Below are positions 54,483 through 62,660 of a DNA stretch of 64,000 nt, in pieces; position 1 is the stretch's first letter, and each line of letters opens with the position of its first letter. This stretch comes from a phage. The stretch is from sequence record OZ335964.1. The stretch is one strand, 5' to 3'. The position numbers were made by a program, and so were the translations under genes. The notes under the pieces are model-generated. The model saw nothing but the letters and a program-made list of their open reading frames with translations, searched no databases and was not told the DNA's origin.

Positions 54483-56281
54483 AACAATTAATTAATATCG
54501 GTAACGTTGTTGATGACGGTACAGGTGATTATCTAAGAAAAGGTGGTCAAAAGATTAATGACAACTTTTCTGAACTTTACACTAAGCTGGGGGATGGTGA
54601 TATCCCTCATGCATCCGGCGCGTGGAAAACTCACACACAACCAGTATTAAAACCAAATTTTGGTGATGCATGGGCGATTAATACAACGAACAACGCTGTT
54701 TCTGTTGAATTGCCTAAAGGAAGCGCGAGTGATTATAATAAAACAATTAAACTTCGTGATGTTTGGCGCTCATGGGCTGCACATAACGTAACGTTGAAGC
54801 CAGCACAAGGTGATACCATTAAGGGATCTCCAATCGACCGTGAGTTGTATAAAGATTTCATGGATGTTGAATTGGTTTATTGTGCGCCTGGACGTTGGGA
54901 ATATGTCGAAAATAAACGAGTAGATACTATCACCACTTCCGATTTAAGCACAGTCGCTAAGGAAGTTTATATTGCAACCGAAGGACAAACAGACTTCCCC
55001 AATGTGTTTGGTTCCAATACTTACAATATTCGAAATGTTGAAGTTTATTATCGCGGTAACTTGCTTTATTATGGCAAGGATTTAACCGATGATTCTAACT
55101 ATGGTTCAATCGGTGAAAACGGTGATATTGTTCCTCTGGACGGTAAAAGTATTAAATTGCGCTTCCCTTGTTCGGCGGGTGATACCATTCAAATCATCAC
55201 TTATATGGACGGTATCGCATCCTTCCGGTCAAGCTATATTACTCATACAATCCGCGTTTATGAAACAGGAATGACAACTTTGGAATCCATCCCCGGTGAA
55301 GTTTGGGTTGGTGAACTAGCTAATAAGAAAGAATTTACTAATGCTGAATTAGGCGTAAGTAAGCGAGATCTTATTAATCCAAATTCATTTGAATTGCTGA
55401 TCAACGGCACACAAATGATTAAAGCGGGTGATGCGGATTTACCTTCCTTTATTTGTGAAGGTGCTGACGGTGAAACAGAAGAAACCTGCGTACTTGCTGG
55501 CGGTCAATGGGTAGAATCTGGGGAAGATTATTCATTGATGTTCGACGAAAACAGCGTGGTGACTGGTATTAAATTATCTAAAGCACTAGATAACCGAGAT
55601 ACTATCACAATTCGCTGGTTTAATAATGATATCGGAACATTAATGGAATGGGACGGTGTAGGCGGTATTAAAGAAAAAGCAGATCAATTTTATCTTAATA
55701 ACGAAGATGAAGTTACTCTGACAAATCGAATTGAATATACTGACTTCCAGAATCCAAGTCAAGCAACTAAACGCCCGATGGAAGATTATACAGGTCGTGT
55801 GATGGATATCTATGCCATCTTTGACATTTTCCATCCTATAGGCACAATTTATGAAAATGCGCATAACCCAGCCAACCCAGCGACCTATATGGGAATTGGT
55901 ACATGGGTACGTTATGCGGAAGGTGAATTTCTGGCTGGTTGGTCATCTGACGCAAGTGACCAGAATTTTGCATTAAACAATAATGATCTTGATAGTCATG
56001 GTCAACCTACACATACCGCAGGTGGTAAAGGTGGTGATGTTGCATACCAGATCAAGAAAAACATGATTCCTGAATTACAGAGCAACGATCGAGTTCTTGT
56101 AAAAGATGATAACGGAAATATTATTATCGGTGGTTGTCAGGTAGACCCTGATGCAGTAGGTCCAGCATTTACCAAATACCGCGAGGATACTGTAAAAGTT
56201 AATCAGGGGAATACAGACCCATCAATGATGGGTATTCTTCCTCCATACAGAACTGTCTATCGTTGGCTAAGGGTAGGTTAA
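54479..56281 (+). CDS. 10: baseplate wedge / tail pin protein gp10
   Basis: MKQLINIGNVVDDGTGDYLRKGGQKINDNFSELYTKLGDGD matches remembered T4 gp10. Confidence 0.9.
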   Translation: MKQLINIGNVVDDGTGDYLRKGGQKINDNFSELYTKLGDGDIPHASGAWKTHTQPVLKPNFGDAWAINTTNNAVSVELPKGSASDYNKTIKLRDVWRSWAAHNVTLKPAQGDTIKGSPIDRELYKDFMDVELVYCAPGRWEYVENKRVDTITTSDLSTVAKEVYIATEGQTDFPNVFGSNTYNIRNVEVYYRGNLLYYGKDLTDDSNYGSIGENGDIVPLDGKSIKLRFPCSAGDTIQIITYMDGIASFRSSYITHTIRVYETGMTTLESIPGEVWVGELANKKEFTNAELGVSKRDLINPNSFELLINGTQMIKAGDADLPSFICEGADGETEETCVLAGGQWVESGEDYSLMFDENSVVTGIKLSKALDNRDTITIRWFNNDIGTLMEWDGVGGIKEKADQFYLNNEDEVTLTNRIEYTDFQNPSQATKRPMEDYTGRVMDIYAIFDIFHPIGTIYENAHNPANPATYMGIGTWVRYAEGEFLAGWSSDASDQNFALNNNDLDSHGQPTHTAGGKGGDVAYQIKKNMIPELQSNDRVLVKDDNGNIIIGGCQVDPDAVGPAFTKYREDTVKVNQGNTDPSMMGILPPYRTVYRWLRVG

Positions 56282-56938: not shown

Positions 56939-58339
56939 ATGGCAAACAATACTATTAACCATGTAAAAGACGATGCTCAATACGTCAAGTTTAACCCTGT
57001 AAATGATTGGCCTCAAAGCATTACCAACGTACAAGCGGCTTTAGCCGCTATTAACGGCTTTGCCGTAAATGGATTACCGGACGCTACGGAAGATACAGCC
57101 GGGATCGCTGCAATCGCAACTCAGGAAGAAGTAAACGACGGTACAGTAGACAATAAGATCGTGACTCCAAAAACACTGGCTGTTAAAATGTCACGTCCAG
57201 ATGCCACAAAAGAAGTAAAGGGTATCACCCGATTTGCCACGATGGAAGAATCGCTGCAAGAGAGCAACGAGAACATGGCAATCGGTCCAGACACACTAAA
57301 CCATTACTTCACCACTAAAAAGGCGTCAGAGAGCGTTCAGGGGACTATTAAGATATGTTCTCTTGAGGCAGCAAAGATTGGCAGTGATGACACAATGGCA
57401 GTAACACCGAAAAAGATGCACACTGCTATTGCACAGATTGTACCGGGATTAATTCCAGATCAAAACACAGCAACCGAAAGCGCACAAGGTTTAGTTCAGT
57501 TAGCAACCAATGCGCAAGTTTTACAAGGCCAGATTCGAGAAGGTTTTGCAATTAGCCCTTATGCATTTGCAAATGCTCGCGCCAATGAGAATCAGGCGGG
57601 TACTGTTAAGATCGCCAACCAGTCACAGATGAATGCTGGTTCAGATGATACTGTAGTTGTTTCTGCTAAGAAGTTTGCAAGCACTAAGGCAACAACGTCT
57701 CAATACGGTATTGTTAAACTACGAGACACCGTAGGAAGTGAGGCTAACGCTGCACTATCAGCAAATGCTAAGGTTCTTCCTAGCACTGGCGGTACGGTAA
57801 GCGGAAACGTCTATAAAGGTTCTAACTCAGACGGCAACCAGTTTGTTACTAAAAATGAATTAGCGAATCACGCAATGCCAATTGGTGGTATTATCCTTTC
57901 TGGATTCAATGCTGATCGCGGTGACTTTCTGATCTGTAATGGTCGTTCACTGAATAAAAATCAATATCCGCAATTATTTTCTGCGATTGGTTATACCTTT
58001 GGTGGTTCAGGTAACAATTTTAACCTTCCTGATATGCGTGGTTTAGTTGCTCGTGGTTGCGATCATGGAAGAAACTTTGATCCAGGCCGTCGATTTGGTT
58101 CTTATCAAGAAGACGCAATGCAGAGAATTACTGGTAAATTCCCTGTAGCTGACCGCTGGCGCGGTTGGTATGGTGGCGCATTTACTGCACAGCGCGGTCA
58201 ATGGAGCACGAACTATAAAAACGGTGGGGGTGATGATTGGGGTTCTACTGTTAACTTTGACTCAGGAAGATCCGTAAGAACGGCTAACGAGACTCGCGTC
58301 AAGAGTCTGGCATTAAACTACATCATAAGGGTGCGCTAA
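56939..58339 (+). CDS. 12: short tail fibre protein gp12
   Basis: MANNTINHV...YVKF...VQAALAAIN..VNGLPDA and C-terminal LPDMRGLVARG...LNYIIRV match remembered T4 gp12. Confidence 0.9.
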   Translation: MANNTINHVKDDAQYVKFNPVNDWPQSITNVQAALAAINGFAVNGLPDATEDTAGIAAIATQEEVNDGTVDNKIVTPKTLAVKMSRPDATKEVKGITRFATMEESLQESNENMAIGPDTLNHYFTTKKASESVQGTIKICSLEAAKIGSDDTMAVTPKKMHTAIAQIVPGLIPDQNTATESAQGLVQLATNAQVLQGQIREGFAISPYAFANARANENQAGTVKIANQSQMNAGSDDTVVVSAKKFASTKATTSQYGIVKLRDTVGSEANAALSANAKVLPSTGGTVSGNVYKGSNSDGNQFVTKNELANHAMPIGGIILSGFNADRGDFLICNGRSLNKNQYPQLFSAIGYTFGGSGNNFNLPDMRGLVARGCDHGRNFDPGRRFGSYQEDAMQRITGKFPVADRWRGWYGGAFTAQRGQWSTNYKNGGGDDWGSTVNFDSGRSVRTANETRVKSLALNYIIRVR

Positions 58340-60108
58340 TGATCGAACAATTAAACATTCGTAACATTCCTAACGTTGATGGTGTACCGGGCGAAGGCCA
58401 ACACTCAATCATGTGGATGAAAAATGGTGAATGTTTAAGCGCAGCAACTACCCAGACTGGTCATGACGGTACGCTTAACCGCGTACCTTATGCTATTCAG
58501 GAAAACGTTGTTCGCTTAGACGAAAACGCTAAAACAACTAAGACAAAAATTAATGAGATCGTAACTGCCGTTAATGACATTAAAACGACTTTAGGTGCAA
58601 TCGGTGACGGTAGCGTTATTGATATTGTAAACCAAACAATCGAACATGTCAATGCAGTCGAGGAAAACTTAGGAGAAACCGCAAGAACTCTCCAGACTGC
58701 CGTAACTGGTCTGGAAGGTGTTCAAATCAAGATCGGTGTTCGTCCAGCAGCAGATCCGAGCACACGAACGATCTATGATGATATTTCCTTCATTAAACAG
58801 GAGATGGGTGCATATCCGGGATTTAACATCAACGGACAGCCGGAAGCAGATAACTCCGGTTCTGGTATGAAATATCGTTTAATGCAGAATACAGCAGCAT
58901 TAAACAACCACGGTCAACGAATCTCCCAATTAGAAAGCGATTGGCAAGATTCTGATGTGGGCGATCTGACCGAGAAGGTAAACAAATTTCGTAGCGAACT
59001 AGGCGACACTTCCCTAGCCACACAGGATAATGTTTATCTTCGCTTGCGTACCAATACCCGCAATATTGCTAACTTATCAAATGAAGTCTTAGAAGTCAAG
59101 AAAGCAATTTTATTCGATGCGGTTCCTGATATCGGGACGAAAGTAACAAACCTTACTGCAAACTTTGACCGTTTAGACAGTGAAGTCAACGGCGTAGATT
59201 CTGGTATTCGTCCGCGACTGACGGCAATCGAAAATAAAATTGGCAATCCTCAAGCCGCAGGAAGTCTTGATTATCGTTTAACTAATCAGGAACGAGAATT
59301 TAATGACCTGAAAGTTACAGTTGGTGTTAGTGGCGCAGATGGCCTACGCGGTGAAGTTGCACGGTTGACTAACCAGATCGGGACCGACGTTGATCGTCAT
59401 ACTATCGCCGGACGAATCAAGATTATCGAAAACACACAAGGCCGTTTAGAAGCAAGTGTCCAGGACATTGAGCAAATGGTAGGCAATGCGCAATCCGGTA
59501 TTGTCGCTGGTGTGATGAAACTGTCAACTGATATGTATGGTGATCCACAAGGCGCTGATCAGTTTACTCAAGATGGTATTGTGAAAACTGTCAAGGCGAT
59601 CCAAAAATCTGATGCTGGTAAAGTCTCCGATGTTCCTGATGATGGGTATCATTATCTGCGTAAACACGGTGAATGGGTACAAGTGGCATATGCGGCGGGG
59701 GCATTCAAAAACACTACCGATATTACACTAGAACTTGATGCACAAGACACATACAAGGGTATTCCTTTGACGGACATGACCGCAGAAGTTCCGGTACGTC
59801 AGATGGTTAAAAGCGATTCGCTGGTTACTGTACAGGATAAAGGTTTATTCCGTTGTGTATTCCGCACATCGATTCACGCACAGCATAATGCTACCTTCGT
59901 GGTCGGTATTTTCAAAAACGGGCAAATTGTGCACGAGGTAAGAAATGGTCATTATGGCACTGATGAATTGACCAGCTATTCCACCAGTGCATTCCTAAAT
60001 ATTGAAAATGGCGATAATATAGATATTCGTATTAAGGGTGTATCTGCCGAGGCAGTAGCACAACCAGCACAAATTAAAGAGTTCCTCTTTGGGATTTCTC
60101 CGGTATAA
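58339..60108 (+). CDS. wac: fibritin (whisker, wac) with additional C-terminal domain after the foldon
   Basis: N-terminus VDGVPGEGQHSIMWMKNGE as T4 wac; foldon-like DGYHYLRKHGEWVQV followed by about 125 extra residues. Confidence 0.8.
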   Translation: MIEQLNIRNIPNVDGVPGEGQHSIMWMKNGECLSAATTQTGHDGTLNRVPYAIQENVVRLDENAKTTKTKINEIVTAVNDIKTTLGAIGDGSVIDIVNQTIEHVNAVEENLGETARTLQTAVTGLEGVQIKIGVRPAADPSTRTIYDDISFIKQEMGAYPGFNINGQPEADNSGSGMKYRLMQNTAALNNHGQRISQLESDWQDSDVGDLTEKVNKFRSELGDTSLATQDNVYLRLRTNTRNIANLSNEVLEVKKAILFDAVPDIGTKVTNLTANFDRLDSEVNGVDSGIRPRLTAIENKIGNPQAAGSLDYRLTNQEREFNDLKVTVGVSGADGLRGEVARLTNQIGTDVDRHTIAGRIKIIENTQGRLEASVQDIEQMVGNAQSGIVAGVMKLSTDMYGDPQGADQFTQDGIVKTVKAIQKSDAGKVSDVPDDGYHYLRKHGEWVQVAYAAGAFKNTTDITLELDAQDTYKGIPLTDMTAEVPVRQMVKSDSLVTVQDKGLFRCVFRTSIHAQHNATFVVGIFKNGQIVHEVRNGHYGTDELTSYSTSAFLNIENGDNIDIRIKGVSAEAVAQPAQIKEFLFGISPV

Positions 60109-60114
60109 GAAATT

Positions 60115-60139
60115 AAAGGGGCGTTAAGCCCCTTTTTCG
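60115..60139 (+). terminator. intrinsic terminator after fibritin
   Basis: GGGGC-GUUAA-GCCCC hairpin + UUUUU. Confidence 0.6.
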
Positions 60140-60154
60140 TTTATAGGTGATATT

Positions 60155-61087
60155 ATGTCAGGATATGTAACCAATAACCCTAGAGAATTAAAAGACGCTA
60201 TTCTACGTCGTTTAGGTGCACCAGTAATTAACATCGAGGTGACAGAAGACCAGATTTATGATTGTATTCAACGGGCATTAGAACTCTATGGAGAATATCA
60301 TTTTGATGGCGTGAATAAAGGTTATAAGGTATTTCATGTTAGCGCAGAACAAGCACAACACGGGGTATTTGATTTAAGCGATTCCGGCGTGTATGCGGTA
60401 ACTAAAATAATTCGAACAAACGTAGGAAGTGCTGCCACGATGGATGGTACTGCCGTTTATCCGTGGTTTACTGACTTTCTGTTAGGTTTAGCGGGTGTAA
60501 ACGGTGGATTGGGATCTGGTTGCAGTAAATTCTATGGTCCAAATGCAATGGGTGGTGATTTGGGTTATTTCGCCCAGCTTATGAGCTATCGTGCTACTAT
60601 GCAAAATATGCTTAATCCGCTTCCTGATTACTGGTATAATAGCGCAAACGGACAATTAAAAATTACGGGTAACTTCCGTGCTGGTGATATTATTGTCGCG
60701 GAGGTTTACGTGAAAAGCTATGTGGATGTTCCTGATATGATCGGGGCGGTTGCTGGTTATGCTCACGCTGGCGGGTGCGCTACTATCGGTGGAATCGATG
60801 CAATTTATGATAATCCTACCGCTGGATTAAATGGCATTGTTGCTGGTATGGGTTCTTCTCGTGAAAATAGTCAAGGCGCATATAATAACCGTTGGGTTAA
60901 AGATATGGCGGTTGCATTTACGCGTGAACTTTGGGGACAGATTCTGGCTAAACATCAAGGTCTGCAATTACCCGGTGGTATCACGGTCGATGGGGTTCGA
61001 ATCATCGAAGAAGCACGCGTCGAAATTGAAAGACTACGTGAAGAATTGGAATTGCTCGATCCGCCAGCAGGGATCATTATGGTATGA
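60155..61087 (+). CDS. 13: neck protein gp13
   Basis: 310 aa; synteny wac-13-14-15. Confidence 0.85.
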
Positions 61088-61123
61088 TTAATTGGGGGAA
61101 TATTCCCCCATTTGGAGTAACAC

Positions 61124-61864
61124 ATGTTCAATAATACTCTTTTTGCTCGCTTAGAATCCCAGAAAGACTACGAGAATACACGACAAACCGAGATTCTCAA
61201 TCCCTATGTAAACTTCAACGGTCATACTAATACCCAGACACTGGCTGATGTAATGGTTGCTGAATCTATCCAGATGCGCGGTGTAGAATTGTATTATATC
61301 CCTAGAGAATTTGTCAAACCGGATATGATCTTTGGTGAAGATGTTCAGAGCAAATTTACTAAAGCATGGAAGTTTGCTGCATATATCAATTCATTTGAGG
61401 GATATGAAGGTGCTGGTAATTTCTTCTCTAGTTTCGGGTATCAAGCTAATGATGAATTAACTTTTACGGTGAATCCGAATCTATTCAAACATCAAGTAGA
61501 CGGAAACGAGCCGAAAGCGGGGGATTTGATTTATATTCCTATGAGTAATGATTTATTTGAAATCAACTACTTAGAGCCGTATCAACCGTGGTTCCAGAAT
61601 GGCGCTAATGCTATGCGTAAAATCACAGCAGAGAAATTTGTGTATAGTGGCGAAGAACTTCGACCAGAATTACAGCGTAATGATGGAATTAATGTTGATG
61701 AGTTCGCGGATCTGGATCTTGCACCAATTACCAATCTTGATGGGCTGACAGATATTAACCTTGATCAATATAAAGAAGATAAGCAATTCAGAGACGAAGG
61801 TCGAGACTATATTCAACCGTTTGATCCGATTAATGGCACTGGTTCTCCTTTCGCCGATTTTTGA
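61124..61864 (+). CDS. 14: neck protein gp14
   Basis: 246 aa; synteny. Confidence 0.85.
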
Positions 61865-61904
61865 TAAATACTTGTATTGATATAATATAAGGATCTAATG
61901 ACTT

Positions 61905-62660
61905 ATGAAAAACTATTATCTATACGAAATAAAGAACAATATAAATGGTAAGATATATGTTGGCATTCGTGGGTATGATGGTGACATAAGTCAAGATCCT
62001 TATATGGGTAGTGGATTGACTCTTAAGAGGTCTATTAAAAAGAACGGGATAGAAAACTTCACAAAAACAATTCTCAAAACGTTTGACTCATGGAAAGAGG
62101 CAAGGAAAGCAGAAAGAGAAATAGTTACAGAGGAATTTGTAAAAAGAGAAGATACCTATAATGTTTCGGTTGGTGGACAAGGTGGAAATACTCACGCCGG
62201 GATGAGCGAAGAACGAAGAAAACTTGCAAGCGAAAGACACGCAGAAGCAAACCGAAATAGAGTATGGAAGCAAGAATCTAGAGATAAGGTTAGCGCAAGA
62301 TTCAAAGGTCATAAGCTATCACAGAAGCAGATAGACGCGCTAAAGAAGGCAAACACAGGAAGAAAGTTCACAGAAGAACACAAGTTCAAAATAGGTAAAA
62401 CGTGGCGAGGAAAGAAACGACCAGATATAGGAGAGAAGGTTGCGGCAAAATTAACAGGGAGAAAACTACCCCCAGAACATGTGGCAGCAATAACGCAAAA
62501 TACACCGAGAGGAAAACAACACTTTAGGGCAAAAAGATTCTTCATCGACGATATGGAATTTTATATTTTGAGTGATGCAGCTAAAATGTTTGGTATAAGT
62601 TATAAAACGGTTAAAGCTAGACTTCTCTCAGATAAGTTTCCTACATGGAGATATGAATAA
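61905..62660 (+). CDS. GIY-YIG homing endonuclease (Seg-like, free-standing)
   Basis: N-terminal YLYEIKNNINGKIYVGI GIY-YIG motif; Lys/Arg-rich DNA-binding C-terminus; inserted between gp14 and gp15; visibly AGA/AAA-rich codon usage. Confidence 0.8.
   Translation: MKNYYLYEIKNNINGKIYVGIRGYDGDISQDPYMGSGLTLKRSIKKNGIENFTKTILKTFDSWKEARKAEREIVTEEFVKREDTYNVSVGGQGGNTHAGMSEERRKLASERHAEANRNRVWKQESRDKVSARFKGHKLSQKQIDALKKANTGRKFTEEHKFKIGKTWRGKKRPDIGEKVAAKLTGRKLPPEHVAAITQNTPRGKQHFRAKRFFIDDMEFYILSDAAKMFGISYKTVKARLLSDKFPTWRYE

Follow-up and report, generated by a model that had tools for sequence, protein, structure and literature searches.

Introduction

Fibritin of phage T4 (gpwac, 487 aa; PDB entries 1aa0, 1avy, 2bsg and 3j2o) is composed of an N-terminal domain, a segmented coiled coil and a foldon hairpin, and it ends a few residues past the foldon. 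Eight types of fibritin C-termini have been distinguished, and phage RB49 represents one of them (Letarov & Krisch 2013, PMC3797505, summarising Letarov et al. 2005). The extra C-terminal domain of the RB49-type fibritins is thus already known, with a literature that dates back to 2005, and it is annotated in hundreds of phage genomes. Other C-terminal variants are the two foldons of JS98, the Ig-like domains of RB43/KP15, and the long fibre plus chaperone of Aeh1 (PMC3797505). According to the same source, which is review-style and therefore second-hand, the small foldon alone suffices for trimerisation only in the case of T4 and JS98; RB49 and other fibritins need additional sequence in an expanded C-terminal domain. 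Attachment to the neck is described there as the role of the N-terminal domain (PMC3797505).

In the papers covered, the C-terminus of RB49 Wac is called 'alien' or 'unrelated to T4', and neither a foldon hairpin nor a TNF/C1q fold is mentioned there. Likewise, the literature covered, to which the primary paper of 2005 does not belong, yielded no report that assigns a TNF/C1q fold to RB49 Wac or that notes a kept foldon hairpin. Here, a Wac protein is described that has the same 589 aa, the same gene position and the same three-part layout as RB49 Wac (AAP04366.2). It is only an allele of the latter and belongs to the RB49 type. Two modest refinements are added, i.e., a fold assignment for the C-terminal head and the observation that the foldon hairpin was kept underneath the added domain and was not replaced by it.

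Identification of the wac gene and its neighbourhood

The window, i.e., the whole stretch of 64,000 nucleotides of phage DNA that was analysed (sequence record OZ335964.1), contains an ORF that matched PHROG 1056 ('fibritin neck whisker') with an E value of 1.6e-177. Megablast analysis revealed that its DNA is 98.8% identical to a gene of the Shigella phage JK32 (Krischvirus) that is annotated as fibritin, and about 75% identical to the respective genes of RB49, Phi1, JSE and other RB49-like phages, and the entire 1770 nt were aligned in each case. At the sequence level, these DNA matches identify the source as an RB49-like phage (Krischvirus) and the ORF at 58339-60108 as its wac gene. The coordinates of the gene, of the parts of its product and of additional features are summarized in Table 1.

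As expected for a T4-type fibritin, wac is located between the genes for the short tail fibre (gp12) and for the neck protein gp13, and its start overlaps the gp12 stop codon. The order gp12-wac-gp13 was also found in L001, another T4-like contig, which stems from a distant relative. A search for terminators between 59900 and 60300 led to four sites, in comparison to 0.3 expected from shuffled sequences, and three of the four were overlapping readings of the same hairpin directly after wac.

Table 1. Coordinates of wac, of the parts of Wac and of the genes and elements discussed in the text. Positions refer to the window unless another record is given.
Feature	Position	Strand	Remarks
wac (fibritin, neck whisker)	58339..60108	+	589 aa plus stop codon; single uninterrupted ORF
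N-terminal neck-attachment domain (aa 1-50)	58339..58488	+	aligns to T4 fibritin N-terminus in 1ox3/2ibl
Segmented alpha-helical shaft (aa 51-426)	58489..59616	+	collinear with T4 fibritin shaft
Foldon-like beta-hairpin (aa 427-449)	59617..59685	+	Smith-Waterman, Pfam Fibritin_C, AF2 strands
Predicted TNF/C1q-like jelly-roll head (aa 450-589)	59686..60105	+	140 residues after the hairpin
gp12 (short tail fibre)	56939-58339		upstream of wac; Pfam Collar domain, E 2e-17
gp13	60155-61087		downstream of wac; gp14 comes after
Terminator-like stem-loop	60115..60135	+	after wac stop; 8-bp stem, 5 GC pairs, then T-run
RB49 gp36	L002 12157-13647		496 aa
Jiaodavirus 311F gp36	L004 22802-23464		219 aa

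The N-terminal domain, the shaft and the foldon hairpin

A phmmer search against the PDB sequences aligned Wac aa 7-83 to the N-terminus of T4 fibritin (1ox3, 2ibl) with an E value of about 1e-15, and Wac aa 7-428 to T4 fibritin aa 5-432 (chains 3j2o/2bsg) with an E value of 7e-52. The N-terminal domain is the best-conserved region of Wac in distant relatives (46-54% identity). For the shaft, an AlphaFold2 (AF2) model of the full-length monomer contained 14 helices between aa 49 and 425, with short loops between them. As a single chain of a trimer was modelled, the shaft was of low confidence (pTM 0.32), and the model was used for secondary structure only. Wac aa 354-382 (nt about 59398-59484) align to helix alpha11 of the T4 whisker, with which the T4 protein binds to the gp35 kneecap. 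Of the four residues that make this contact in T4, Q380 is unchanged in the phmmer alignment, and A, D and E are found in place of N377, N381 and Q383; the chemistry of the contact would be more acidic here, if the contact exists in this phage.

The end of the shaft is followed by the foldon hairpin. GKVSDVPDDGYHYLRKHGEWV at aa 427-447 could be aligned without gaps to the 27-residue T4 foldon using the Smith-Waterman algorithm. The score was 65, while 5000 shuffles of the Wac protein gave 23.6 +/- 3.6 with a maximum of 47, and thus none of the 5000 reached the observed value. Pfam Fibritin_C covered Wac aa 368-451 (profile positions 2-92 of 93, E = 1e-25), and the hairpin forms the end of this match. 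In addition, phmmer aligned Wac aa 418-449, as a separate collinear piece, to positions 450-479 of the 486/487-aa chains of T4 fibritin, and AF2 placed the two strands of the hairpin at aa 438-442 and 445-449. Eleven of the 27 foldon positions are identical between Wac and T4. W446, Y439 and R441 were retained, and T4 Glu461 is replaced by D431; these four sites are presumably key positions of the T4 foldon structure. The last residues of the T4 foldon, STFL, are AYAA in Wac. Across the Krischvirus-level relatives P0004-P0018 the hairpin is conserved to 70-96%. In contrast to T4 fibritin, in which the chain ends soon after the foldon, the hairpin of Wac is internal, and the protein runs on into the head of 140 aa.

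The C-terminal head

For structure prediction of the foldon together with the tail, an alignment of the last 172 residues from 13 homologues was used as AF2 input. The resulting model had a mean pLDDT of 89.6 and a pTM of 0.82, and most blocks of ten residues in the tail reached pLDDT values of 90-97. The head was predicted to be an independent all-beta domain that starts three residues after the hairpin. It is a compact beta jelly-roll of about 130 aa, as is typical for the C1q/TNF-like superfamily. In the head fold comparison the scores were 16.1 for ectodysplasin A (EDA-A1), 15.7 for the C1q domain of Caprin-2, 15.6 for ExsFA, 15.4 for the tail fibre of cyanophage A4, 15.1 for the C-terminal domain of BclA, 14.9 for the short tail fibre CBD of cyanophage A-1(L), and 13.1 for PRD1 P5. 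A Foldseek search against the PDB resulted in 312 matches at E <= 1e-3, with BxpB/ExsF, C1QL, EDA and collagen X NC1 near the top. In a library of viral structures, 548 proteins matched at the same threshold, and many of them are annotated as phage fibres with collagen repeats or C1q domains.

The signal at the sequence level was marginal. The head remained below the Pfam gathering scores of C1q (PF00386, 14.5 versus 23.7 bits) and of BclA_C (PF18573, 20 versus 38 bits). Five of ten members of the head family matched BclA_C, with a best E value of 2.7e-7, and P0018 has a precomputed PF18573 annotation. When a profile of the head family was compared with the PDB, cerebellin-4 (E 0.13) and collagen X (E 1.6) were found at sub-significant levels. 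A designed 'Pizza' beta-propeller at the top of this search was spurious and due to summed repeats. A phmmer search of the PDB with the head alone gave chance-level matches to Lin0431 only. The sequence identity between the head and its fold matches was 8-17%. Several C1q-like signatures are conserved in the head family, i.e., AF in the first strand, G-x-F before the third strand, KNG, GD, and a hydrophobic C-terminal strand. Because the sequence signal is marginal, the head is called TNF/C1q-like on the basis of its predicted fold only, and membership in Pfam C1q or BclA_C is not claimed.

An earlier note on this DNA, which let the region of interest begin at position 59620 (codon 428 of wac), had proposed that a foldon is followed by an extra, independent and beta-rich C-terminal domain. 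Both parts were borne out, the former by Fibritin_C, the Smith-Waterman score and the phmmer alignment to T4 450-479, the latter by the all-beta fold with its mostly high block pLDDT values. The existence of an extra tail was right, its length was not: it comprises 140 residues (aa 450-589) instead of about 125. The proposed position of the added domain at the whisker tip of a T4-type fibritin is supported by Pfam, phmmer, AF2 and the fold comparison.

Distribution and conservation

The same 1770-nt gene was present without frameshift in 40 records found by megablast and in 58 found by tblastn. With the head as tblastn query, matches were confined to wac of 58 genomes of the Krischvirus type (78-96% identity), and the identity to RB49 wac was 82% over all 140 aa (E 4e-74). 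The layout is also shared by more divergent fibritins with lengths of 587-598 aa and overall identities of 31-65%. The C-terminal parts of these divergent fibritins matched wac in 172 further phage records, 159 of which are from Klebsiella phages and the others from phages of Raoultella, Serratia, Yersinia, Cronobacter, Erwinia and Salmonella. The one record that was examined, Klebsiella phage 311F, is classified as Jiaodavirus. The divergent fibritin P0024, used as a query, reached two Serratia records beyond Krischvirus. The 'foldon-like hairpin plus TNF-like head' thus represents, as judged from these sequence matches, a widespread fibritin type that is common to hundreds of sequenced T4-like phages.

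An exhaustive HMMER search with the tail among 1.84 billion representative proteins led to three matches. One of them, the eukaryotic Ig-repeat protein P0023, was spurious; only the other two were true, and both are fibritins. Therefore, the head family is confined to fibritins at the sequence level. A word-indexed homologue search with the tail alone retrieved two 110-aa fragments only, and the full-length protein was needed as query. The Ig-domain fibritin P0022 was also among the homologues found. BFVD entry A0A1J0MHA5, an 'uncharacterized protein' of 159 aa from Klebsiella phage KPV15, matched the model of the foldon plus head (TM 0.75, 24% identity); this entry might reflect a wac gene that was annotated in split or truncated form, or else the module existing on its own. 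PF28231.1 is precomputed on the Krischvirus fibritins P0003 and P0010-P0012 and may be a new family for the N-terminus or for the head.

It was considered whether a frameshift, a read-through or a mis-assembly had fused an unrelated ORF to a fibritin that truly ends with its foldon, which would have overturned the earlier note. No point in favor of such an artefact was found. The continuous 1770-nt ORF exists in 58 independent phage genomes, and therefore it is not the product of a frameshift or an assembly error. Furthermore, the layout recurs in the divergent relatives of 587-598 aa, the tail folds confidently, and a terminator follows the stop codon. This explanation was rejected as practically inconceivable.

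The degree of conservation is not uniform along the protein. For the closer Krischvirus relatives P0004-P0015 the identity was 81-92% in the head and 78-96% in the hairpin, in contrast to 44-78% in the last coiled-coil segment. These alignments indicate that constraint within Krischvirus is stronger on the head and the hairpin than on the coiled coil next to them. In P0019, another relative, decay of the foldon motif has left 13% identity, but as judged by length and sequence (16% identity) a C-terminal region as long as the head was kept. The variation within the head at the Krischvirus level is concentrated in aa 459-495, i.e., in early strands and loops. In contrast, hardly any variation was seen in NGHYGTDEL-x-SYSTSAFLNI (aa 536-555) and in the C-terminal strand. 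The invariance or near-invariance of NGHYGTDEL (aa 536-544), an exposed loop, within Krischvirus hints at a function beyond folding.

Divergence from phage JK32 around the locus

A side observation concerns the comparison with JK32, the closest relative. Before nt 59958 the two wac genes differ by a single mismatch (58344), whereas from 59958 onwards the final 150 nt that encode the head contain 22 mismatches. All six amino acid differences between the two Wac proteins are located within the last ~50 residues of the head. A divergence of roughly 10-25% extends through gp13 and gp14 up to an endonuclease gene (59958-61900). The latter is a 251-aa ORF between gp14 and gp15 (61905-62660, + strand). 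Matches to the Pfam I-TevI DNA-binding domain (E 1.4e-7) and to SegE GIY-YIG (E 7.8e-4) suggest that it encodes a GIY-YIG homing endonuclease of the seg type. The ORF is absent in JK32, in which the gap between gp14 and gp15 is 26 nt. The pattern looks like a mosaic breakpoint inside the head, and it is possibly the co-conversion tract of the neighbouring homing endonuclease. Another patch was seen in the C-terminal part of gp10 (55600-56200), where successive bins of 200 nt have 8, 25 and 10 mismatches to JK32 and the surroundings are near-identical.

Discussion

The earlier note had regarded the architecture of this Wac as unusual, but it is that of the long-described RB49-type fibritin. Homology to T4 fibritin comprises the N-terminal domain, the segmented coiled coil and the foldon hairpin. 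In the fibritins of JS98, RB43/KP15 and Aeh1 the N-terminus and the shaft are likewise conserved, and the C-terminal module is exchangeable. The module differs, and the present Wac keeps the foldon upstream of the added module. Trimeric virion fibres that carry the same fold at their distal end are the cyanophage A-1(L) gp33 CBD, the cyanophage A4 tail fibre, PRD1 P5, the Sf6 needle knob and the central spike knob of phi812. In contrast to these TNF-like heads, which are located on host-contacting tail or vertex fibres, the Wac head is on a neck whisker, which is not a host-binding organ in T4. C1q/TNF heads on trimeric stalks are also known from BclA, BxpB/ExsFA, gC1q, collagen VIII/X NC1 and EDA; the stalk of Wac differs in being an alpha-helical coiled coil with a foldon and not collagen.

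TNF/C1q heads are obligate trimers that are found at the C-terminal end of trimeric stalks, the folding of which they nucleate, e.g., in C1q, collagen VIII/X NC1 and BclA. The termini in TNF/C1q trimers are close to the threefold axis, an arrangement that would fit a trimeric stalk. The head of Wac, at the tip of the whisker, is probably the C-terminal nucleus for trimerisation and folding in this RB49-type allele. The whisker would be a trimer that consists of the neck-binding N-terminal domain, the segmented coiled-coil shaft, the foldon-like hairpin and the jelly-roll head, and the head, which is joined to the hairpin by only three residues, would form the distal tip. As an obligate trimer it would nucleate and register the folding of the shaft from the C-terminus, a task that is performed by the 27-residue foldon alone in T4. 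The head would thus take over or reinforce trimerisation and registration by the foldon, and the weakened foldon would now form a neck beneath the head. A trimeric head is suggested by its fold family, by its fusion to a trimeric shaft, and by the report on trimeric RB49 fibritin (PMC3797505). The role as folding nucleus is proposed because RB49 fibritin needs its expanded C-terminus to trimerise (PMC3797505), and because the hairpin and the head of P0004-P0015 are more conserved than the coiled coil that precedes them. The case of P0019, with a decayed foldon and a kept region of head length, suggests that the head can carry the folding role.

A folding nucleus and a binding tip are not mutually exclusive, and the head may secondarily help to handle the long tail fibres. 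A different explanation would make this contact the primary function, i.e., the head would be a docking site for the knee of the long tail fibre, particularly for the enlarged gp36 of RB49-like phages, which would hold the fibres 'up' and aid their attachment during assembly, as in the wac/gp36 covariation model of Letarov. Binding of the fibres has indeed been attributed to the C-terminal part of fibritin (PMC3797505). RB49 gp36 comprises 496 aa. The extra part at its C-terminus shows 79-100% conservation within Krischvirus and was also detected in T4-like phages of Serratia, and two of those Serratia lineages carry a Wac with a head. T4 gp36 has 221 aa. The covariation holds in Krischvirus and in the Serratia phages, but it fails in Jiaodavirus: 311F has a Wac with a foldon-like hairpin plus head, yet its gp36 of 219 aa does not contain the RB49 insertion. 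The gp36 proteins of RB49 and 311F share only the first ~135 aa (40% identity) and a terminal IDFGT(F/Y), and the rest is an insertion of ~275 aa. Therefore, the head does not require an enlarged gp36 as partner. In T4, furthermore, the whisker contacts the fibre not with the foldon but with the shaft helix alpha11 (fibritin 361-386), which is bound in a groove of the gp35 kneecap (2026 cryo-EM preprint, 10.64898/2026.03.06.709160). Fibre docking as the function of the head is therefore rather unlikely, albeit clearly conceivable.

The earlier note had suggested a sensor or an adhesin, and in that case the whiskers would be an extra host-sensing organ, the head of which would recognise a glycan on the host surface or some other ligand from the environment. 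The same fold occurs in receptor- or carbohydrate-binding heads, i.e., in the RBP of the lactococcal phage 1358 with GlcNAc, the RBD of TM4 gp23, PRD1 P5, the short-fibre CBD of cyanophage A-1(L), and the TNF-like lectins of Photorhabdus and Burkholderia (BC2L-C). Such a head forms the end of hundreds of fibre proteins in the library of viral structures, and for Aeh1 fibritin host recognition has been raised as a possibility (PMC3797505). However, fold similarity at an identity of 8-17% says nothing about a ligand, and no binding to cells was observed for the isolated A-1(L) CBD (PMC10966104). The Wac head is conserved to 78-96% in 58 Krischvirus genomes, the hosts of which have different O antigens. 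It does not exhibit the hypervariability of the gp37/gp38 tips and is more conserved than the adjacent shaft. Host-range differences among RB49-like phages map to gp38, and host-range mutants of RB49 had changes only in gp38 (PMC9569957). The conservation of the head, together with the localization of host range in gp38, argues against a host-range adhesin, and the proposed role is neither shown nor favored. An adhesin or sensor appears improbable, and the same low probability is given to a ligand-binding module in the form of a lectin for a conserved enterobacterial glycan or an ion- or pH-sensitive clamp, for which NGHYGTDEL would be the candidate site. If it were true, RB49-like, Jiaodavirus-like and related phages would own a neck-borne sensor or pre-adsorption organ that is absent in T4.

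Taken together, the results carry little weight as a discovery and may be of modest help to phage structural biologists. The fold assignment links fibritin to the general rule that TNF/C1q heads nucleate trimeric stalks, and the natural unit of a foldon plus a TNF-like head could be of interest in protein engineering, where the foldon is employed as a trimerisation tag.
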